Shown: one piece after another, positions 2,134 through 59,635 of the stretch
Numbering within the stretch: position 1 is the first letter of the stretch
How the letters are laid out: the number at the start of each line of letters is the position of its first letter
Virus genome (UHGV): UHGV-0248400
DNA length: 59,635 nucleotides
From: a virus
Strand: one strand, 5' to 3'
Notes under the pieces: generated by a model
The model's database searches: none
Seen by the model: only the letters and a program-made list of their open reading frames with translations
Told to the model about the DNA's origin: nothing
Program-made: the position numbers and the translations under genes

Positions 2134-4488
2134 ATGAAGGGATTACTGAACCGTAAACAATGGGTTTGCTGGAGGCTGGAGCATATTGAAGGTCGCCCAA
2201 AACCCACGAAAGCACCTTACAGCCCAGTCCACGGGTACAAGGCCAGTACAACAAATCCGGCTGACTGGTCTGACTATCATACTGCGCTGGGTATGGCGCA
2301 AATACATGGTATGTCTGGTGTCGGTTTCGTGTTCACTGAAAACGATCCCTATTTTTTCATTGACGTCGATAACTGTCTGGTAGATCAGGCTACTGCCACG
2401 TGGTCACCACTGGCACACGAATTTGTAAACCGTTTCCCCGGCGCTTACACCGAAGTAAGCCAGTCAGGAACAGGCTTACATATCATCTGTGCGTATAGCA
2501 GTTTACCGGAAGGGTTTAACAGCCTTAACGATCAGAAAACCGGGCTTGAAATGTACTGGCGCGATCGCTTTGTTGCCATGACATTAACCGGGAATGGTGA
2601 AGTTGACGTTGACTATACACAGGGTGTTCACGACTCGATCGCCCGGTATGGGCGCATTCGTTCTGATCGTTCCGCACACTGGACCAGCGCACCCTGTGAT
2701 GAATGGTCAGGCCCAGAAGATGACGAAGAACTGATCGCAATGGCGTTGAAGTCATCCAGTGCGGCTTCAGTTTTTGGCAATAAAGCATCGTTTGCGGATC
2801 TGTGGACGGCAAATGTTGAAAAATTGTCTGTCAGTTATGCGAGCGATCAGGGGAAAGATTATAACGGAAACGCAGCTGATGCGGCCCTGTGTTCACATCT
2901 TGCTTTCTGGACAGGTAAAAACTGTGAACGCATGGAGCGGTTATTTAATAAATCAGCGCTTGTTCGTGGTAAATGGACAGATCGAAAAGATTACCGTGAG
3001 AGAACAATATTAGGTGCAGTTGAACGTTGTGATACCGTTTATCGTGCACAACCAGCGCTGACCCCAGAACTGATTAATGCTGTTACGCCAGCGCCTACAG
3101 TCGCGGTAACGGGTAGTGTTCCGGCGTATATGTCGATCAGACCTGGCGAAGGTGCTTATGGGGCTAACCACACGGTTAACGCATCCACTTTCGTTAATAA
3201 CTATTATCCTAATAACACGCTGGTTTTTGTACAGCAGCAACCGTACCGCTTTAACGGTCGCGTCTGGGAACGTGTGACAGAAGATGAATTAAAACATCAG
3301 TTATCTATGGCAATGCTGGCGAGCGAACCAAAAGCTGATGTTATTAACGGCACCTATAAGGTTTTAAGCTATTTATTCACCCGTGCAGATCGTGAGTTAG
3401 GCACCTGGCCGGGCGTTGATGTTTCACACTATATTGTGTGTCAAAACGGGATACTTGACGTTCACACCAGAAAATGTGAGCCGCATAACCCTGATTTCTT
3501 CACCACCAGTATTTTACCATACAGTTATGACCCTTTCGCACAGGCACCCGTTTTTCAGGATTTTCTGAATACGACGCTGGAAGGCGATCAGGAACGTATT
3601 GCACTGCTGCAGGAATGGCTGGGGTATATGCTGGTTAACTCCTATGACTATCAGAAAGCGATGTTACTGATCGGTGCGCCTCGTTCTGGTAAAGGTACTA
3701 TCGGCCAGATTATTCAGGCGCTGGTAGGTGATGAAGCCTATGCCGGGATTACGCTTGAAGGGCTGGCAAGTGATGCTGTTCTGGAAACTGTGCTTGATAA
3801 ATCCGTGTTATTTATTGGCGATGCTCACAGTGTTTCCGGGCCTGACCGTAACAGGATCCTCGACCGTTTTAAATCGATAACCGGGGCTGATGCGATCCCT
3901 GTTAACCGTAAATATAAAGGTGCGTGGAATGGTCGTTTACCGGGTCGTATGACACTTGCCGCGAACAACATCCCGGCCTTTGCTGATGATTCTGGCGCAA
4001 TGGCAAACCGCTTGCTGATCCTGCCGTTTAACATCTCGTTTCTGGGTCGTGAAGATATCACGCTGAAATCACGGTTAATGAAAGAATTACCGGGGATCTG
4101 CAACTGGGCTATCGAAGGTCTTGAACGGTTGCGTAAAAATAATCGCTTCACTGAACCAACAGCAAGTATTGTTGAGCGTCAGGAAATCATGGATCAGCAG
4201 GCACCGCTGATGGCGTTTGTTCGCGACTGCTGCGAGCTGTTACCTGATAGCGTAACCCACACTGAAGAACTTTTCTGTAGATATAAAATGTGGAAGATGC
4301 AGGAGGGCGGCGCGACGATGACGAAAACCGCTTTCAGCCGGGCGTTTAAAAGTATGTTGCGTGGTCGTGTGGTTAAAGATGTGGTGTCTGTTAACGGTCA
4401 GCGGGCAAACGGTTTCCGAGGAGTGCGTTTACTCCCTTTCCAGCCAGCGGGTAACGTTGTTCCTTTCGCGCCCGCCAGTAATAGTTAA
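2134..4488 (+). CDS. DNA primase / SF3 (P4-alpha, D5-like) replicative helicase
   Basis: 784 aa. The C-terminal half carries Walker A GAPRSGKGT and Walker B VLFIGDAH. The N-terminal half is D5_N/prim-pol like. Typical phage primase-helicase organisation. Confidence 0.8.
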   Translation: MKGLLNRKQWVCWRLEHIEGRPKPTKAPYSPVHGYKASTTNPADWSDYHTALGMAQIHGMSGVGFVFTENDPYFFIDVDNCLVDQATATWSPLAHEFVNRFPGAYTEVSQSGTGLHIICAYSSLPEGFNSLNDQKTGLEMYWRDRFVAMTLTGNGEVDVDYTQGVHDSIARYGRIRSDRSAHWTSAPCDEWSGPEDDEELIAMALKSSSAASVFGNKASFADLWTANVEKLSVSYASDQGKDYNGNAADAALCSHLAFWTGKNCERMERLFNKSALVRGKWTDRKDYRERTILGAVERCDTVYRAQPALTPELINAVTPAPTVAVTGSVPAYMSIRPGEGAYGANHTVNASTFVNNYYPNNTLVFVQQQPYRFNGRVWERVTEDELKHQLSMAMLASEPKADVINGTYKVLSYLFTRADRELGTWPGVDVSHYIVCQNGILDVHTRKCEPHNPDFFTTSILPYSYDPFAQAPVFQDFLNTTLEGDQERIALLQEWLGYMLVNSYDYQKAMLLIGAPRSGKGTIGQIIQALVGDEAYAGITLEGLASDAVLETVLDKSVLFIGDAHSVSGPDRNRILDRFKSITGADAIPVNRKYKGAWNGRLPGRMTLAANNIPAFADDSGAMANRLLILPFNISFLGREDITLKSRLMKELPGICNWAIEGLERLRKNNRFTEPTASIVERQEIMDQQAPLMAFVRDCCELLPDSVTHTEELFCRYKMWKMQEGGATMTKTAFSRAFKSMLRGRVVKDVVSVNGQRANGFRGVRLLPFQPAGNVVPFAPASNS

Positions 4489-4527
4489 AATAATTCTTGA
4501 CGGATTACAAGGAAGTGATCCATACTC
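4483..4527 (+). promoter_or_regulatory. conserved sigma70-type promoter copy (UP-like AAAATAATTC, -35 TTGACG 4497-4502, 17-bp spacer GATTACAAGGAAGTGAT, -10 CATACT)
   Basis: One of 11 near-identical copies of GTTTAAAATAATTCTTGACGGATTRCA. Faces downstream + genes. Confidence 0.5.
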
Positions 4528-4556
4528 TGTACATCAACTGAACAGGGGTTAAGACG

Positions 4557-4696
4557 ATGACTAAAGAACAAGCACGTTTCAAAAAACTAGGTTATATGCG
4601 CGCGGCAAGAATTTCTAAGAAAATGAGTTGTTCGTTGCGTAAACGTGATGTTTTAAGAGCGCTTCATTACCGTGACTTACAGAAAACGCTTTCGTA
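4557..4696 (+). CDS. small basic protein (46 aa)
   Basis: ATG 4557 with AGGGG SD, directly downstream of the promoter. Below the ORF-track size cutoff. Confidence 0.3.
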
Positions 4697-4908
4697 AGCA
4701 ATATACATGCCGATGCAGCGCTTATGACTTTCCACACCGTTTCAGCGGTGGGCGCTGTCAGGGTTTGTGGTTAGTCGAGCCTAATCATTATTGCCCGGCG
4801 TGTAACTTGCTTGCGGATTCTGGTTGTCAGGTCATCAACGGTATTGAACATCCGCGCGAATGCCCATTAGTTCAGGACTTTTGCAATCACCACGAGGTTA
4901 AATTATGA
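4672..4908 (+). CDS. Cys-rich small protein (putative zinc finger, 78 aa, GTG start)
   Basis: CxC...CPAC...C...C pattern. Ends HHEVKL, encoded by a repeated intercistronic junction CACGAGGTTAAATTATGAAA. Confidence 0.4.
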   Translation: MTYRKRFRKQYTCRCSAYDFPHRFSGGRCQGLWLVEPNHYCPACNLLADSGCQVINGIEHPRECPLVQDFCNHHEVKL

Positions 4909-5138
4909 AAGTTATGTTTAAGGGTGGTTCCTATGACGGTGAATTAATAGACGTTGATGACTCGTTACCAGAGTATTTGAATATGGTTAAGCGTAGGAAA
5001 CCATCTGTAGCTAAGTATGACGATTATGATAAAGGATTACCGGTTGTTATAAAATTCACTACTGAAACATATCAATGCAAAGATTTTTATAATAATGGTC
5101 AATACACTCATAGCGAATATCACGAGGTTAAATTATGA
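4905..5138 (+). CDS. hypothetical protein (77 aa)
   Basis: ATGA start-stop overlap and GAGG SD. Ends YHEVKL, the same junction repeat as the upstream gene. Confidence 0.5.
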   Translation: MKVMFKGGSYDGELIDVDDSLPEYLNMVKRRKPSVAKYDDYDKGLPVVIKFTTETYQCKDFYNNGQYTHSEYHEVKL

Positions 5139-5347
5139 AACCGCGTTATCGGTTAATGAAATTATCAGATTGTGCAAATGGTACGCGCTTTTATTTTTAT
5201 CGTTCTAAAATGATGCTGCCTTATACGCTGATTGCCATCAATCGTAAGAAATACGAAGGTGTTTATCACATAGGGCATGATTTCAATATTAACGTTCGGA
5301 TGTTTAGAATATCGTTAAATAAACAAGTTTGGGCCAAGGTGGAATAA
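5135..5347 (+). CDS. hypothetical protein (70 aa)
   Basis: ATGA overlap and a coupled RBS. Confidence 0.45.
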   Translation: MKPRYRLMKLSDCANGTRFYFYRSKMMLPYTLIAINRKKYEGVYHIGHDFNINVRMFRISLNKQVWAKVE

Positions 5348-5542
5348 ATGGGTGGTCGTGGGTCTTGTCGTAGAACTCGTTCGTTACGCTGTAGCAAGTG
5401 TTATGAACAATACGGTTATAACGGTCTTGTCAAAGTAACAGGTAAGAATGGAAACGCTTTTACCTGCCGCTGTGAAACCTGTGGTTATACTTATCAAACA
5501 ACATCAGCGGCTGCACGCCGCGCCTGGAGATACCGTGCTTGA
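5348..5542 (+). CDS. zinc-ribbon small protein (64 aa)
   Basis: AAGGTGG SD. CxxC...CxC...CxxC motifs. Confidence 0.45.
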   Translation: MGGRGSCRRTRSLRCSKCYEQYGYNGLVKVTGKNGNAFTCRCETCGYTYQTTSAAARRAWRYRA

Positions 5543-5696
5543 ACGTATCGTTATTACAATTATTTTCCTGATTTCCGTGGCGCTGGTTTCTTCAAATCTG
5601 GCGTTTATCAGTGAACAGTGGGTACTGGCGTTGACAGGTGTTGTTGCAGGATTAGCCAGTATTGCCGCGTGTATGTGGGGTGCTCAAGATGACTAA
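5448..5696 (+). CDS. small hydrophobic/membrane protein
   Basis: Hydrophobic segments IVITIIFLISVALV and VLALTGVVAGLASIAA. Overlaps 5348..5542 out of frame. Start uncertain: ATG 5448 or GTG 5535. Confidence 0.3.
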   Translation: METLLPAAVKPVVILIKQHQRLHAAPGDTVLERIVITIIFLISVALVSSNLAFISEQWVLALTGVVAGLASIAACMWGAQDD

Positions 5697-5904
5697 ATTA
5701 GGAGCGGTGATCCGTAAAGGTGAATATTACGCACAAATTAATGATCGTCTGGAATGGGTTAATATCAACTATGCGACTATTTTCAGTTCGACATATAAAG
5801 CAGGTGTAGCATTACAGGCGCTTCGTGAACAGGGGTTTGACGTGCGTAAAATGTGTGTCGCACAGGTTAAGGTAATAACTAGTGTAATGGAGACTGGTGT
5901 TTAA
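5689..5904 (+). CDS. hypothetical protein (71 aa)
   Basis: ATG 5689 overlaps the upstream stop. The track ORF starts at an upstream TTG. Confidence 0.4.
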   Translation: MTKLGAVIRKGEYYAQINDRLEWVNINYATIFSSTYKAGVALQALREQGFDVRKMCVAQVKVITSVMETGV

Positions 5905-6593: not shown

Positions 6594-6797
6594 ATGATTG
6601 TGGGGGATTTATATGTTTATCAACAAACTGGTATTTTTGAAAAATGCTGGGTTTTAATAACACATCATAATCCTTGCGAGGGATTGATCATATGGGCAGA
6701 CGGTGTAAAACAAAGATCTATGATTACAGATCAGGATTTCCGCAAATACAACGGGGAATTAGTCGGGCGTAATGTAAAAATGAGGCCAATGCTATGA
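6594..6797 (+). CDS. hypothetical protein (67 aa)
   Basis: ATG 6594 with GGTGGAG SD. The track starts at an upstream alternative codon. Confidence 0.4.
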   Translation: MIVGDLYVYQQTGIFEKCWVLITHHNPCEGLIIWADGVKQRSMITDQDFRKYNGELVGRNVKMRPML

Positions 6798-7189
6798 TCG
6801 TAGTCGTCACGGGTGGGCGTGATTATAATGATAAGGCTGCTATCTTCGGTGCATTATCAATACTACACGCACAACACCCGATCACTGAATTGATCGAAGG
6901 TGAAGCGTCTGGTGTTGATTCAATCTGCCGTGAATGGGCGGAACTGCACGCGATCCCTGTTCGTCGCTGTCCGGCTGACTGGGGTAATCTTGACGTGCCG
7001 GGCGCGGTTATTAAACAGGGTAAGCACGGGTCGTATAACGCCGTAGCTGGTCATCAGCGTAACCAGAGTATGTTAGATGACGAACCACGCCCGGCATACG
7101 GTGTTGTGTTCCCTGGTGGGCGTGGAACGGCTGATATGCATCGTCGCATGTTGAAAGCTGGTTTAACCGTATGGGTGCCTTATGGTTGA
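6794..7189 (+). CDS. SLOG-superfamily Rossmann-fold protein (DUF2493/YpsA-like, LOG-related)
   Basis: N-terminus VVVTGGRDYND, plus GEASGVD...WA and PGGRGTADM motifs characteristic of DUF2493. ATGA coupling with neighbours. Confidence 0.55.
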   Translation: MIVVVTGGRDYNDKAAIFGALSILHAQHPITELIEGEASGVDSICREWAELHAIPVRRCPADWGNLDVPGAVIKQGKHGSYNAVAGHQRNQSMLDDEPRPAYGVVFPGGRGTADMHRRMLKAGLTVWVPYG

Positions 7190-7610
7190 TAGTTTCAGTG
7201 GTGAATATCGCTGGTTAAGTAATTTCCATCCGGTCACCGTAATTTATGACGGGTATGTTTTTAAAACTGTTGAACATGCTTACCAGGCACTTAAATGTAA
7301 ATTTTATCAGGATTTCTTGGAGGTTAAAAACTGTGAAACGCCGGGTCAGGCTAAACGTAGCGCTCGTCAAAAAATAATGCGTGATGACTGGGATAAAGTT
7401 AAAATCCCGGTGATGTTTTATTTATTGCAGCAGAAGTTTTCAGATCCTCATTTATGGTCTTTGCTCATTGCTACTGGTGATCAACCGATCGTTGAAGGTA
7501 ACCAGTGGGGCGACACTTTCTGGGGTGTTTGTCGTGGTAAAGGTGAAAACCATTTAGGCAAAATGATCATGGCCATCCGCGCCGGACAACAACACTATGA
7601 AACTGTCTAA
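7182..7610 (+). CDS. NADAR-domain protein (YbiA/DUF1768-like N-glycosidase)
   Basis: Core YRWLSNFHP...F.TVEHAYQALK...G.WG....G.N.LGK is diagnostic of the NADAR family. Start overlaps the upstream gene. Confidence 0.7.
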   Translation: MVDSFSGEYRWLSNFHPVTVIYDGYVFKTVEHAYQALKCKFYQDFLEVKNCETPGQAKRSARQKIMRDDWDKVKIPVMFYLLQQKFSDPHLWSLLIATGDQPIVEGNQWGDTFWGVCRGKGENHLGKMIMAIRAGQQHYETV

Positions 7611-8025
7611 AAAACAGCGTCAGGAACTGCGTATGAAGTTTGGCGGGTATTGTGCTTACTGTGGTCAGTTGTTGCCGGAAAAAGGATGGCACGCTGACCA
7701 CATTGAAGCGATCCACAGGAAACTTGAAATTGATGAGGATGCAAGAAGCAAAGGAAAATGGAAACTGAAACAGACTGGTGAATCATACCGACCACAACAC
7801 GATACCCTGGAAAATCTTTATCCAGCTTGTGCACCCTGTAACCTGTTTAAATCTGTTTATGATATTGAGGAATTCAGGAGACAAATTGCCTTTCAGGCTG
7901 GGAGGGCACTTAAAACGTCTGTCAATTTCCGCACTGCTGAACGCTTCGGACTGGTTCAGGTAGTTGAACGCCCCGTGGTATTCTGGTTCGAGATCTACCC
8001 TCTCATAGTTCAAAATAATTCTTGA
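7597..8025 (+). CDS. HNH endonuclease
   Basis: CAYCG...H.DH...C..CN is an HNH motif with zinc-binding Cys pairs. Start overlaps the NADAR gene end. Confidence 0.6.
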   Translation: MKLSKKQRQELRMKFGGYCAYCGQLLPEKGWHADHIEAIHRKLEIDEDARSKGKWKLKQTGESYRPQHDTLENLYPACAPCNLFKSVYDIEEFRRQIAFQAGRALKTSVNFRTAERFGLVQVVERPVVFWFEIYPLIVQNNS

Positions 8026-8051
8026 CACATTGCAAACCCTCCACCATAATC
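8010..8051 (+). promoter_or_regulatory. conserved promoter copy (-35 TTGACA 8022-8027, 17-bp spacer, -10 CATAAT 8045-8050)
   Basis: CAAAATAATTCTTGACACATTGCAAACCCTCCACCATAAT. Overlaps the 3' end of the HNH gene and faces the ParB-like gene. Confidence 0.55.
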
Positions 8052-8077
8052 AGCCTCAGTTACTACACATGAGGCTG
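8051..8077 (+). promoter_or_regulatory. 5'-UTR hairpin sequestering SD (CAGCCTCA...TGAGGCTG)
   Basis: 8-bp stem immediately after the predicted TSS. The 3' arm contains the GAGG SD of the 8085 gene. A near-identical stem occurs at 27785-27810. Confidence 0.35.
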
Positions 8078-8084
8078 AAAAACA

Positions 8085-8843
8085 ATGTCCAACATCCATT
8101 CACTGCGCAAGTTGTCAGAAGCAGACAAAGAAAACGTAAAACGCGCTAACTCCTTCATGATCGACCCGCGCATTATCCAGATCGAGCCGGGCTTTAACCC
8201 TCGTGGTATGTTCACGGAAAACTACTGGGAACAACCGGACACTCTGGCGCATATCGAACAGTTCGTTAAAGCATACCGCAACGGTGATTTCGTCCCGCCG
8301 ATCGCCGTTAAAGTTATCAATGGTGTACCTTATGTGCGCGACGGTGAGCACCGCTTACGGGCGCTGTGTAAACTGATCGCTGAAGGCGTACCGTTCCAGC
8401 GTGTTGAAGTCGTTGAAGCGTCTGGTGACGAACTGGCGCAGGCTAAAACCAACTATAACGCTAACAATGGTCGCCCGTGGTCAGCCGTCGAACGTGCGGT
8501 TCATTACGGTCGTTTTAAATCCTACGGTATGACCGTTGAAGAAATCGCCCACGAGGTCGGTAAAACCGTACAGCACGTTTACCAGTTGCTGACTATCCTT
8601 GAAATGCCGCTGGAACTCAAACGCCGGATCCAGGAAGGGTCGATCAGTGCATCAGCCGCTATCAACCTGTTTAAAAACCCGGACGTTGCTACCGTAAAAC
8701 GTCCCCCGGCTAAACTGATTCGTTCGGCTGTTGACGCCATCCGTGGTGAATGGTCGGTCACGCGGCAGGAAGGCGGTAAAGTCCTGGTTGAACTGACCGC
8801 TGAACAGTATGAAGCACTGAAGGCGCTGAAAGATCATGAATAA
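8085..8843 (+). CDS. ParB/sulfiredoxin-like nuclease domain protein
   Basis: ParB N-terminal domain signature ...VRDGEHRLRA... with a C-terminal helical part. GAGG SD. Confidence 0.6.
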   Translation: MSNIHSLRKLSEADKENVKRANSFMIDPRIIQIEPGFNPRGMFTENYWEQPDTLAHIEQFVKAYRNGDFVPPIAVKVINGVPYVRDGEHRLRALCKLIAEGVPFQRVEVVEASGDELAQAKTNYNANNGRPWSAVERAVHYGRFKSYGMTVEEIAHEVGKTVQHVYQLLTILEMPLELKRRIQEGSISASAAINLFKNPDVATVKRPPAKLIRSAVDAIRGEWSVTRQEGGKVLVELTAEQYEALKALKDHE

Positions 8844-27784: not shown

Positions 27785-27814
27785 AAGCCTCAGTAACCAC
27801 GCTGAGGCTTTTCT
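27785..27814 (+). promoter_or_regulatory. hairpin (AAGCCTCAG...CTGAGGCTT TTCT) occluding SD of head-morphogenesis gene; possible weak terminator/attenuator
   Basis: 9-bp stem. Its 3' arm contains the GAGG SD. It is followed by TTTTCT and then ATG 27815. The stem sequence is nearly identical to the hairpin at 8051-8077. Confidence 0.35.
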
Positions 27815-51141: not shown

Positions 51142-52483
51142 ACGCGATCCTCTGTTTAGCTATTTCACAATAATGTGGGTCCATTTCAAAACCGATAAAT
51201 TCAAAACCTTCGATTGCACAGGCTTTACCAGTTGAACCACTACCTGTAAATGGATCCAGAACTTTACCACCGGGTGGTGTAACGAGGCGTACAAGCCATT
51301 GCATCAGTGCTGTAGGTTTCACCGTAGGATGGTTATTACGTGCGCCTGATGTACGCCCGGCACCTGCACGGGGGCTATTTAACCCATCAGTATCAGGTTC
51401 ACGGTCTGTCATTTCAGCAGCGGTAACCATCGCCAACATAACACCTTCATCACGGTCTGATTTGCTCGCTTTAGCACAGTAGAAGAACCGCGCGGCGCTA
51501 CCTGAATCAGCGTGAAAGGCACCAGGAACCCTTTCACGCTGGCCTGTTACATTGCCCGTTGATGCCTGACTTGCTTCAGTACCTTTTATGGGTGCAGCAG
51601 CGCCAGCTTTCGCCGGGAACAGGCTTACGACTTCATATGAACCATCGTGGATAAAGTTTGCGGGGAAGCGGCCTTGTGTGTCAGGCTGGTTAGCAGTTGA
51701 TGGATCATAATTATCAGACAGACCTGTTATTGATGGTCTACCATTTGCAGATGATTTAAAATCGCCATTCAGTTCTGTTCGACAACCATCAATGTTCATA
51801 CCACCCGTACCGAACTGCAGGATATTTTCAGCAACCGTTCCAGCCAGTGGTTTACGCGCAACGCAAATAGGCTCATGAGCAGGTTTTAAAGCTGTTCCCC
51901 ATCCTTGCCACTGTTTTGCTTCGTCAGTAGCTGGTGCGGTGATAAGTTTTTTACTGAGGTCCATTGTATCGTGACGATTTTCAGCATCACGCCAATTATT
52001 ATTGATCGCTGAACTTTTACGATCTCGACCGTCAAAAGAACTTCGAGGATCTACAACACCTATTACTTCACGTTCAGCACCTGAAGCCTTATCAATCGCC
52101 TTGCTGATATCCAGTGACTTAGGGAAACCGGAACCATAAACCCAGTCAATTTGATCACGGATTTCAAATCCAGCTAAACGGATCGCCAGCGTCCCCAGGT
52201 CATAGGTGCGTGTTCCGAAAAACGCTAATAGGTGACCACCTGGTTTCAGAACGCGGAAAACTTCTTTCCAGACTGACGGACCCGGAACAAAACTATCCCA
52301 GGTTTTACCCATAAAACCACCGCCTGTATGAACATAATCGTCGCCGTTTAACCAATGGCGTAAAACTTCATTCATATCAGGTTGTTTACTGAGTCCGTAA
52401 GGCGGATCTGTCACGACTGCATCGATACTGTTATCGGAAAGCATCATACGCATACCGATCAGGCATTCCATGTTAATCACCAT
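51125..52483 (-). CDS. DNA N6-adenine/N4-cytosine methyltransferase (N6_N4_Mtase family, beta class) with large insertion
   Basis: Motif IV DPPYG near the N-terminus, motif I DPFTGSGSTG near the C-terminus, and HPTVKP. 452 aa. Confidence 0.75.
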   Translation of the reverse strand: MVINMECLIGMRMMLSDNSIDAVVTDPPYGLSKQPDMNEVLRHWLNGDDYVHTGGGFMGKTWDSFVPGPSVWKEVFRVLKPGGHLLAFFGTRTYDLGTLAIRLAGFEIRDQIDWVYGSGFPKSLDISKAIDKASGAEREVIGVVDPRSSFDGRDRKSSAINNNWRDAENRHDTMDLSKKLITAPATDEAKQWQGWGTALKPAHEPICVARKPLAGTVAENILQFGTGGMNIDGCRTELNGDFKSSANGRPSITGLSDNYDPSTANQPDTQGRFPANFIHDGSYEVVSLFPAKAGAAAPIKGTEASQASTGNVTGQRERVPGAFHADSGSAARFFYCAKASKSDRDEGVMLAMVTAAEMTDREPDTDGLNSPRAGAGRTSGARNNHPTVKPTALMQWLVRLVTPPGGKVLDPFTGSGSTGKACAIEGFEFIGFEMDPHYCEIAKQRIAYVHTR

Positions 52484-52823
52484 GTGGAATACTCTCTACG
52501 CTGTAATAAATAGGGATGCCCAGCCGTTCAGCTTCTGCAATTTCTGCCAGTGTACCAGACGAACGACGATAATCAGGAAGCACCAGAACAGCATCACAGC
52601 GGTGCATGACTTCCAGTGTACCTGACAGGTAGTATTCAGGCTGAACATTACGCAGACCGCCGTCAAAGTCCCATAGTTCGGTATTTTTGTGGGGGATCAC
52701 CGGGAACCATTCAGGACGCTCTAACGTCAGACGTTTACCCATTTGTTCAGCACGGGACACATTACGGGATGTTTTAAGCGCACAATCAGCGCGATAAGGT
52801 CCGGCAATATAGCAGAGTTTCAT
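52473..52823 (-). CDS. nucleoside 2-deoxyribosyltransferase-fold protein (Rcl/DNPH1-like, DUF4406-type)
   Basis: YIAGPY...D.VLVLPD...SSGT..E...A...G.P matches the Rcl/NDT Rossmann-like signature. Confidence 0.45.
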   Translation of the reverse strand: MKLCYIAGPYRADCALKTSRNVSRAEQMGKRLTLERPEWFPVIPHKNTELWDFDGGLRNVQPEYYLSGTLEVMHRCDAVLVLPDYRRSSGTLAEIAEAERLGIPIYYSVESIPHGD

Positions 52824-58464: not shown

Positions 58465-58508
58465 TAAGGTTACGAGTCAGGTTGCAATGTGTCAAGAATT
58501 ATTTTATG
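58465..58508 (-). promoter_or_regulatory. conserved promoter copy (-35 TTGACA 58490-58495, 17 bp, -10 TAACCT)
   Basis: Reverse complement of TGCAATGTGTCAAGAATTATTTTATG. Heads the minus replication block. Confidence 0.5.
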
Positions 58509-58540: not shown

Positions 58541-58684
58541 ATGGGTTTATACAGTTTCATTCGTCACAACGTATTTTTCGACCGTGTAACGGGTAAGTAT
58601 ATTTTCCGGGGTCGTGAGTTTAAACGAAACGGACAGGCACAGAAAGCAGCGCGTGATGCATACGTTAAGGAGAACCGCGCGTGA
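58541..58684 (+). CDS. small basic protein (47 aa)
   Basis: GGAG SD 9 nt upstream of the ATG. GTGA overlap with the helicase start. Confidence 0.4.
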   Translation: MGLYSFIRHNVFFDRVTGKYIFRGREFKRNGQAQKAARDAYVKENRA

Positions 58685-59635
58685 GTCAACAACCTTTACG
58701 TTACTACCAGCAGGACGCCGTTAACGGCGTGAATGCGCAGTGGGACGCTGGTAAGAAAGATGTGATTCTGGTCATGCCCACCGGGAGTGGTAAAACGCGA
58801 ACGATGGCTGAACTGGTGAAAGTTGACGGGATCAAAGTTATCCAGGCGCACCGTAAGGAACTGGTCAGTCAGATAGCGATGGCGATTGCTGCGCAGGGAT
58901 TACCACACCGTTTTATTGCGCAAAAAGACGCTATTAAGTTTGCCACGGGGCAGCAGATGAAAAAGCTGGGTTACAGCACGTATGCACCCGGCGCGGATAT
59001 CGTTATTGCCAGTGCACCCACGCTGCGAACAAAAAAATACGAACGCTGGCACGATAGCGTAACCCGTGTTTTTTGTGATGAAGCCCATCACCTGGTACGC
59101 GGAACCATGTGGGGAACCTGTCGTGAACTTTTCCCAAAATCTTTAGGATTAGGCGTAACTGCATCACCGATCCGTGCAGATGGTAAAGGGCTTGGACGTC
59201 ATGCGTCTGGTTATGCTGATGCGATGGTGATCGGCCCGGCAATGCGCGAACTAATCAACCAGCAGCACCTGGCCGATTATCGCCTGATTATGGCTGAAAC
59301 AGATATTGACCTGACAGCGGATATGATTTCTAGCACTACGGGGGATTACAAGCCATCTGCGTTGAAAAAGGCAATGGAAGATTCAACCATCGTTGGTGAT
59401 ACAGTGAGCACCTGGAAAATGTACGCCGACGGTATGCTGACGGTGGTTTTCACCGTTGATGTTGACGCGGCTATAACATTGGCACAGGAATTCAGGGACG
59501 CGGGTATTCCTGCTGAGGCAATCAGTTCGCGTAATACCGATCAGGAACGCGCCGATATTCTGGACCGTTTCGAAAAACGCAAAACCCTGATCATGTGCAA
59601 CGCGGATCTGTTCGGCGAGGGTTATGACTGTCCGG
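58681..59635 (+). CDS. SF2 helicase, N-terminal part (continues at 1..710)
   Basis: Walker A VMPTGSGKT, DEAH-like FCDEAHH, TASP motif III. No stop before the window end. In frame with 3..710. Confidence 0.75.
   Translation, partial: MSQQPLRYYQQDAVNGVNAQWDAGKKDVILVMPTGSGKTRTMAELVKVDGIKVIQAHRKELVSQIAMAIAAQGLPHRFIAQKDAIKFATGQQMKKLGYSTYAPGADIVIASAPTLRTKKYERWHDSVTRVFCDEAHHLVRGTMWGTCRELFPKSLGLGVTASPIRADGKGLGRHASGYADAMVIGPAMRELINQQHLADYRLIMAETDIDLTADMISSTTGDYKPSALKKAMEDSTIVGDTVSTWKMYADGMLTVVFTVDVDAAITLAQEFRDAGIPAEAISSRNTDQERADILDRFEKRKTLIMCNADLFGEGYDCP

Follow-up and report, generated by a model that had tools for sequence, protein, structure and literature searches.

We analyzed a locus of three overlapping genes in the virus genome UHGV-0248400, a stretch of 59,635 bases (referred to here as the window) that is a complete, circularly permuted Klebsiella siphophage genome from the Carvajevirus/Sashavirus/Nonanavirus neighborhood. 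Its best GenBank matches include phages KP13-27 (91% over 78% of the first 25 kb), VLCpiS10a, phi_270, Kpn BU9, phi_KPN_H2, and Carvaje. The three genes, which encode a SLOG protein, a NADAR protein, and an HNH endonuclease, lie on the plus strand of the replication region, downstream of a primase gene (2134-4488) and upstream of a ParB-like gene. The features of the locus are as follows (aa, amino acids).

6794-7189, plus strand: SLOG gene (YAcAr/DUF2493), 131 aa; Pfam YAcAr PF10686
7182-7610, plus strand: NADAR gene, YbiA-type, 142 aa; Pfam NADAR PF08719; cassette body, 7183-7597
7597-8025, plus strand: free-standing HNH endonuclease gene, 142 aa; Pfam HNH PF01844; cassette body, 7598-~8008
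8009-8050, plus strand: right border of the cassette hotspot, with promoter; conserved tail ATAGTTCAAAATAATTCTTGA and TTGACA-17-CATAAT at 8022-8050
8051-8077, plus strand: inverted repeat between the promoter and the ParB-like gene; CAGCCTCA-N11-TGAGGCTG
8085-8843, plus strand: ParB-like gene, the downstream backbone neighbor; Pfam HTH_ParB, 1.5e-7; phrog_1033, 3.8e-55

The open reading frames (ORFs) begin at 6794, 7182, and 7597, exactly where a first-pass annotation of the sequence had placed them, with overlaps of 8 nucleotides (nt) between SLOG and NADAR (ATGGTTGA) and 14 nt between NADAR and HNH (ATGAAACTGTCTAA). That annotation had taken the overlaps as translational coupling within a single module. 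We rejected this argument, since overlaps are the rule along the array and the two junctions are cassette borders (see below). The SLOG start is itself overlapped by an upstream 73-aa ORF (6794-6797), and start-stop overlaps occur in most of the small genes from the primase gene to the ParB-like gene, so that they are not peculiar to the trio. Ratios of nonsynonymous to synonymous divergence (dN/dS) against relatives were low for SLOG (0.05 to 0.14), NADAR (0.06 to 0.13), and HNH (0.03 to 0.28), indicating that all three genes encode proteins under purifying selection. PADLOC returned only weak matches (NADAR to PDC-M42C, 1.8e-4; HNH to PtuB-like models), and these do not appear to indicate a defense system.

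All three family assignments in the first-pass annotation were upheld: each protein scored above its Pfam cutoff and matched a PHROG, and the motifs quoted there are present. The SLOG protein matched YAcAr PF10686 at 8.2e-21 (74 bits; cutoff, 28.2), with the model spanning residues 1 to 63 only, and phrog_289 at 3e-25. It contains the motifs GGRDYND, GEASGVD, and PGGRGTA. Its homologues are stand-alone proteins of ~115 to 145 aa, a few of which are fused to DUF4326; residues G7, G8, R9, G36, G40, D42, W63, G86, R89, and N90 and the stretch P107 G108 G109 x G111 T112 x D114 are invariant among them. Homologues were found by tblastn in 660 of 50,697 phage records, and the family is present in bacterial genomes too. 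GenBank labels of the gene in relatives are misleading (“GTP-binding domain” or “swarming motility protein”).

An AlphaFold model of the SLOG protein (predicted local distance difference test [pLDDT], 96.6) has the Rossmannoid fold of the SLOG superfamily; a profile search of the sequence against the PDB detected no solved structure. The modeled fold is equally near to noncatalytic SLOG proteins (YpsA, the sensor domain of ThsA, and DprA/ShosA); hence, the fold does not tell apart an enzyme, a ligand sensor, and a binder of single-stranded DNA (ssDNA). LOG phosphoribohydrolases, to which the first-pass annotation had compared the protein, are recognized by the catalytic motif PGGxGTxxE together with a match to the LOG profile. 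The protein reads PGGRGTADM, which places Met115 at the position of the LOG catalytic Glu and an Asp one residue earlier, and a Pfam scan gave no match to LOG (Lysine_decarbox), DprA, or YpsA. Neither the DNA_processg_A profile nor the accessory domains that mark DprA/ShosA-type proteins were found in it; its 131 aa include none of the extra domains of DprA, ShosA, and ThsA.

The NADAR protein matched PF08719 at 6.1e-21 (75.8 bits; cutoff, 35.1; residues 8 to 134) and phrog_1017 at 6e-41, and it carries the motifs RWLSNF and TVEHAYQ. The sole solved structure matched by its sequence is E. coli YbiA (2b3w; 6.5e-14). Its more than 2,500 homologues are mainly stand-alone proteins of ~140 aa. In an alignment of 33 of them, E31, H32, K38, E105, W109, D111, and W114 are invariant. 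Residues E31, K38, E105, D111, and W114 correspond to E43, K50, E125, D130, and W133 of the P. nicotianae NADAR in complex with ADP-ribose (ADPr), so that the full catalytic set is kept. The catalytic and ADPr-binding residues of NADAR proteins have been established by structure and mutation, including E88 and K95 of the E. coli C7 NADAR (PMC11543638, Schuller 2023). The residue at the position of P. nicotianae E125 is Glu in YbiA-type proteins, His in T4-type phage NADARs, and Asp in BC4488/DarG1-type proteins (PMC11543638). In the window, this residue is E105, within VEGNQWGD, the Glu that is the hallmark of the YbiA type. All four NADAR families remove ADPr from guanine in DNA and RNA, and for the YbiA-type and general NADARs the same holds for cytosine (PMC12945103, PMC11833690). 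Judged by these residues, the protein is most likely an ADPr glycohydrolase acting on guanine and possibly on cytosine.

A Pfam sweep of the 103 ORFs of the window found no ADP-ribosyltransferase, DarT, Macro, Nudix, DUF4326, or NAD-salvage gene. With no ADP-ribosyltransferase, Macro, or Nudix gene in the window, we regard the NADAR gene as an orphan rather than part of a toxin-antitoxin system; its neighbors are the SLOG, HNH, and ParB-like genes, and no DarT gene adjoins it as in DarT1-DarG1. The protein resembles YbiA-type NADARs (E. coli YbiA, 2b3w, and C. crocatus YbiA, the YarT antitoxin) in its hallmark Glu, its stand-alone architecture, and their size range of ~140 to 160 aa. It differs from them in being encoded by a phage, outside any LexA operon, and away from any ADP-ribosyltransferase toxin gene. 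With the antitoxin DarG1 it shares the superfamily and the predicted removal of ADPr from guanine N2, whereas DarG1 has Asp in place of Glu and a family-specific Lys and is paired with DarT. NADAR homologues were found by tblastn in 523 of the 50,697 phage records, close ones only in phi_KPN_H2, KP13-27, and AVIO78A. GenBank labels of the gene are as misleading as those of SLOG (“ParB-like protein,” “swarming motility protein,” “GTP cyclohydrolase II,” and “riboflavin biosynthesis protein”).

The HNH protein matched PF01844 at 2.3e-5 (24.9 bits; cutoff, 21.4) and phrog_2118 (HNH endonuclease) at 1e-53, and it has an HNH/His-Me motif with CxxC pairs. Its distribution and divergence are incongruent with those of SLOG and NADAR. 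The gene is absent from phi_KPN_H2, AVIO78A, Bas82, and the more distant relative L167; it is also missing from this site in VLCpiS10a, which has a 64%-identical copy downstream of its ParB-like gene. The nearest relative of the window copy is that of Carvaje (99% aa identity; synonymous divergence [dS], 0.19), a phage that has no NADAR gene. In contig L004, which has all three genes, HNH is 77% identical to the window copy, versus 92 to 94% for SLOG and NADAR. This incongruent history, together with the second site in VLCpiS10a, argues that the HNH gene is a selfish mobile gene. We conclude from these sequence comparisons that it is a free-standing, putatively homing-type endonuclease cassette with no share in any SLOG-NADAR chemistry; its mobility follows from the comparisons, and its cleavage activity is predicted. 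Like known free-standing HNH homing endonucleases, it shows presence/absence polymorphism, sharp boundaries, a second site, and an incongruent phylogeny. Unlike them, it takes its 3′ end from the promoter-proximal tail of the target site.

Comparison with relatives showed how the locus is assembled. The SLOG gene is backbone and occupies the same position in every relative examined, and the ParB-like gene lies downstream in all of them. Between the two, the site exists in four states. SLOG alone is followed by the ParB-like gene in VLCpiS10a and, with one small ORF in between, in Bas82. SLOG and NADAR occur in phi_KPN_H2 and AVIO78A. SLOG and HNH occur in Carvaje and the metagenomic contig L007, as well as in Kpn BU9, Sasha, Sergei, and Solent, where the state was read from annotations and from the lack of a match over the NADAR stretch. 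All three genes occur in the window, L004, L005, and KP13-27. Pairwise BLASTN placed sharp breakpoints at 7182/7183, 7597/7598, and ~8008. Junction sequences place the cassettes after the final SLOG codons (..VPY) and ahead of a conserved block, ATAGTTCAAAATAATTCTTGACA; they separate the SLOG gene body from the promoter of the ParB-like gene. The hotspot lies at 7183-8050 in the window, 2857-2985 in L164, 5065-5185 in L001, and 4365-4445 in L003. In KP13-27 (OP617744; L002, 4391-5231), the closest GenBank relative, SLOG is intact (94.7% identity), whereas codon 11 of the NADAR gene is a stop codon (W11*) and HNH loses its reading frame near codon 73; both cassettes could have decayed naturally, or the lesions could be errors of sequencing. 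We concluded that the three genes are a backbone SLOG gene and two independently gained and lost cassettes, not a fixed module.

The last gene of the array, whichever it is, takes its final codons (..IVQNNS) and its stop codon from the conserved block: SLOG in VLCpiS10a (in another frame), NADAR in phi_KPN_H2, and HNH in the window. The shared ..IVQNNS tail is thus promoter-proximal sequence. No other sequence in the first 12 kb matches a sigma-70-like promoter as well as TTGACA-17-CATAAT (8022-8050; 11 of 12 positions), and the TGA stop codon of the last gene lies inside the −35 hexamer of this promoter, TTGACA. The array thus forms the 3′ end of a transcription unit, the hotspot abuts a promoter, and the next transcription unit begins with the ParB-like gene. 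A 24-nt block containing the consensus −35 hexamer, AAAATAATTCTTGACACATTGCAA, occurs twice in the window, at 8011-8034 on the plus strand before the ParB-like gene and, in the opposite orientation, at 58479-58502 on the minus strand, where it heads the minus-strand array of replication genes; it is probably a phage-specific promoter element. The inverted repeat AGCCTCA-N-TGAGGCT likewise occurs twice, at 8052-8076 and 27786-27809; chance alone would predict zero matches. A start codon follows closely on each copy, that of the ParB-like gene (8085) or that of a 317-aa gene (27815), and the 3′ arm contains the GAGG ribosome-binding site. In AVIO78A and Bas82, the outer pair of the repeat is changed from C-G to T-A. 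The repeat might act as an operator or form a translational hairpin.

We then asked whether SLOG and NADAR are associated beyond this clade, using 80 viral contigs with the closest SLOG proteins and 80 NADAR-bearing viral contigs and taking neighbors within 4 kb. A YAcAr gene lay within that distance in 8 of the 80 NADAR contigs, 2 of which belong to the same clade as the window and 6 of which are independent (6/78). These six contigs are 15 to 191 kb long, their NADAR proteins are ~47 to 53% identical to that of the window, and their YAcAr matches exceed the Pfam threshold in five. In five of the six, the YAcAr gene adjoins NADAR or is one gene away on the same strand: SLOG is followed by an overlapping NADAR gene in L131 and L156, as in the window; the order is reversed, again with an overlap, in L106; and one gene intervenes in L126 and L158. 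In the sixth, L123, SLOG is 3 kb away. By a rough estimate from the prevalences given by Iyer et al. (2022), ~0.2 adjacent pairs would be expected by chance in 78 contigs, versus the 5 observed.

A search with concatenated proteins identified six natural fusions of PF10686 and PF08719, four in the order SLOG-NADAR and two in the order NADAR-SLOG, with key residues of both domains kept (P0241, P0246, P0249, P0296, P0300, and P0312). An AlphaFold2 model of fusion P0249, built from a four-sequence alignment, was too poor to show how the domains pack (predicted template modeling score, 0.44; pLDDT, 64.5). Within the clade, the dS values of SLOG and NADAR match in every pair of genomes, and in L167 the pair persists at 59% and 64% aa identity, respectively, with the same 8-nt overlap. 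The SLOG-centered sample had at first suggested that there is no link; that view was overturned by the NADAR-centered sample and the fusion search. The recurrence of homologous pairs in other phages, which the first-pass annotation had proposed to check, is thus documented by adjacency in at least five unrelated phage lineages and by six fusions. The functional link between SLOG and NADAR that the annotation had proposed therefore stands, while its three-gene module gives way to separate NADAR and HNH cassettes gained and lost independently at the hotspot. Genome comparison indicates that the SLOG-NADAR link is real but facultative, most phages apparently using each gene alone.

Among the functions that the first-pass annotation had suggested, an anti-DarT role is the best supported: the catalytic residues are kept, and phage NADARs of other subfamilies have been shown experimentally to counter DarTG1 (Johannesman et al., PMC11257639). 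All of the phage NADARs tested, namely, T4 AdfN (gp30.3) and two unrelated proteins, NADAR-Bas32 and NADAR-Bas60, restore phage growth on DarTG1 hosts (PMC11257639), and transposon sequencing in the HIDEN-SEQ preprint confirms the anti-DarTG1 effect of the T4 NADAR. Like these proteins, the window NADAR is an orphan in a replication region, without a cognate toxin and with the conserved Glu and Lys. Unlike T4-type proteins, which have His at the position of Glu105, it is of the YbiA type. We propose that the NADAR protein would hydrolyze the N-glycosidic bond between ADPr and guanine, or possibly cytosine, in phage ssDNA or RNA, and would thereby clear ADP-ribosylation of the DarT1 type, or of another base-directed type, from replicating phage DNA. 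It would act as an orphan, antitoxin-like counterdefense, as AdfN does in T4, co-inherited with SLOG yet dispensable. The fusions, the proteins with a similar fold, and the location in a replication module lead us to infer a role for SLOG in ADPr handling; it probably binds ADPr or a nucleotide related to it, or processes this ligand further, possibly while on ssDNA. The HNH cassette, horizontally exchanged and selfish, would lie outside this chemistry. We hold this explanation as a whole, with an anti-DarT1-type NADAR, SLOG as its ADPr partner, and a selfish HNH cassette, to be slightly more probable than not.

Several observations weigh against this explanation. Only 2 of the 80 contigs with the closest SLOG proteins have a NADAR gene within 4 kb, both in the same clade as the window, and the other 78 have none at that distance. 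Even among close relatives, NADAR is absent from Carvaje, VLCpiS10a, and Bas82 and bears a stop codon in KP13-27. In the SLOG-centered contigs, the recurrent neighbors of SLOG are instead genes for a DEAD-box helicase, a PD-(D/E)XK-like nuclease, a sigma-like protein, Dcm, a beta clamp, primase, and ParB. A literature search found no experiment on any YAcAr protein, no report of signal-degrading or sponge activity for one, and no experimentally characterized phage SLOG antidefense protein. NADAR proteins of T5-like phages are just ~45% identical to that of the window. Finally, although active in vitro, neither E. coli YbiA nor the T4 NADAR gave rescue from DarT1 toxicity when assayed in vivo in one plasmid-based test (PMC11125620); hence, in vitro NADAR chemistry is no guarantee of counterdefense.

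It is conceivable, if rather unlikely, that the two genes are not coupled here at all, SLOG being a DprA-like accessory of replication or recombination that binds nucleotides or ssDNA and NADAR an independent gene of the hotspot. The helicase context of SLOG bears on this alternative. A ~586-aa DEAD/ResIII helicase gene lies directly downstream of YAcAr, with a start-stop overlap, in 13 unrelated viral contigs (e.g., L028, 4329-6089); ICP1 HelB is an SF1B helicase fused to DUF2493; and the helicase is a second, and possibly stronger, functional association of this SLOG family. The natural fusions in both orders, the excess of same-strand adjacency in unrelated large phages, and the co-inheritance of SLOG and NADAR down to ~60% identity argue against a lack of coupling.

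Two further readings give the pair a joint chemistry, and we consider each of them unlikely. In the first, SLOG would be an enzyme or an obligate ligand-binding subunit in series with NADAR, cleaving or capturing the ADPr that NADAR releases from modified bases or a product of the cyclic ADP-ribose (cADPR) type, so that repair of ADP-ribosylated phage DNA would be combined with removal of NAD-derived signals. In the second, which was proposed by Iyer et al. (2022) and, in a similar form, by the first-pass annotation, SLOG and NADAR would destroy or sequester soluble NAD-derived toxins or signals (for example, the cADPR isomers of Thoeris or ADPr-phosphates) rather than repair ADP-ribosylated nucleic acid. 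Every NADAR assayed acts on base-linked ADPr in DNA or RNA, however, and a literature search found no report of NADAR activity on cADPR. Moreover, the lack of any Macro, Nudix, or DUF4326 gene in the window and the lack of reported signal-degrading or sponge activity for YAcAr proteins both speak against soluble signals as the target.

We regard it as very unlikely that the trio is a sensor-effector unit in which SLOG, on sensing a ligand derived from ADPr, controls the HNH nuclease, and NADAR recycles the ligand. Sporadic SLOG-HNH fusions have been described (PMC9503650), SLOG-HNH adjacency is common in the clade (Carvaje, BU9, Sasha, and L007), and an HNH_2 gene lies beside one SLOG-NADAR fusion (L169). 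That HNH_2 gene, however, represents another Pfam family and has the opposite orientation; HNH itself is absent in phi_KPN_H2, AVIO78A, Bas82, and L167, follows the ParB-like gene in VLCpiS10a, is frameshifted in KP13-27, and has diverged incongruently with SLOG and NADAR. Least probable of all is that NADAR is a YbiA-type housekeeping N-glycosidase that acts on reactive riboflavin-pathway intermediates and has no counterdefense role: YbiA is indeed its closest solved relative, but its score against NCBIfam TIGR02464 (“riboflavin biosynthesis intermediates N-glycosidase”), at 72.9 bits, falls 0.8 below the curated cutoff of 73.7, there are no riboflavin genes in the window, the gene, a cassette within the replication region of a phage, is dispensable, and YbiA-type proteins also remove G- and C-linked ADPr.

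The first-pass annotation had not been able to assign the SLOG-NADAR pairing to a described system. The pairing has in fact been described. In phages, SLOG domains, mainly from the YpsA-like clade, occur in “ADPr-processing” contexts, either fused to Macro, NADAR, and DUF4326 domains or encoded beside them (Iyer, Burroughs, Anantharaman, Aravind 2022, Viruses 14:1977, PMC9503650). The same study reported sporadic fusions of SLOG to HNH, helicase, and exonuclease domains, and it offered the processing or degradation of soluble ADPr-derived signals as a prediction only. The locus in the window resembles those pairs in combining a SLOG protein of the YpsA-like clade with NADAR in the early/replication region of a tailed phage, adjacent, on the same strand, and with a start-stop overlap; fusions of the same two Pfam families also exist. 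It differs from them in lacking a Macro, Nudix, or DUF4326 partner anywhere in the genome and in residing in a ~60-kb siphovirus, a class in which NADAR was found to be rare (PMC9503650). Both the SLOG-NADAR pairing and the counterdefense role of NADAR are already in the literature, and the locus is no new kind of system.

Several other arrangements of these genes were seen. In L167 (Logan SRR33471211 contig; 3089-5130), a distant relative of the window, genes for an HD_4 phosphohydrolase, YAcAr, NADAR, and Nmad5 (nucleotide-modification-associated domain 5) follow one another in this order, a nucleotide-centered cluster that may point to DNA base modification. The 150-kb phage contig L131 has SLOG, NADAR, and an ATP-dependent DNA ligase gene in order (3639-5801); T4 gene 30.3 (AdfN) adjoins gene 30, the DNA ligase gene. 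Other NADAR architectures, found among P0347, P0327, and P0248/P0254/P0285, include NADAR with DUF4326, RNase_T with NADAR, and proteins of ~350 aa in which PF08010 (Phage_30_3) is joined to NADAR. In Enterobacter phage EC151 (MW464860; 8673-9071), NADAR adjoins a queuosine tRNA-ribosyltransferase-like gene, a 7-deazaguanine DNA-modification context. The Jedunavirus NADAR has no SLOG gene within 5 kb.

Elsewhere in the window, a 116-aa protein encoded on the minus strand at 52476-52823, in the replication module beside a NinX homologue, matches DUF7768 and DUF4406. DUF4406 is nucleoside 2-deoxyribosyltransferase-like, and the protein would be a second small member of the TIR/DrHyd/SLOG class. 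A ResIII/DEAD helicase gene (58681-59634) is truncated by the right end of the window, and base 3 is the start of a 235-aa ORF that has no annotation (3-707); it looks as if the circularly permuted genome was cut inside or beside the helicase gene.

The hotspot is a clean example of accessory gene swapping in phage early regions, in which the next promoter, through its upstream part and its −35 hexamer, always provides the final codons and the stop codon of the last gene of the array. The clade forms a near-isogenic natural panel at this locus: cultured phages of Klebsiella, E. coli, and Salmonella represent all four states, and among them are the BASEL phage Bas82 and a natural NADAR nonsense allele (KP13-27). 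This panel is suited to the study of YbiA-type phage NADARs against DarT1-like defenses, of the contribution of SLOG, and of HNH homing. The main value of the locus is as a tractable route to the function of DUF2493; if the reading in which SLOG and NADAR act in two steps is true, it would give the large DUF2493 family its first biochemical function.

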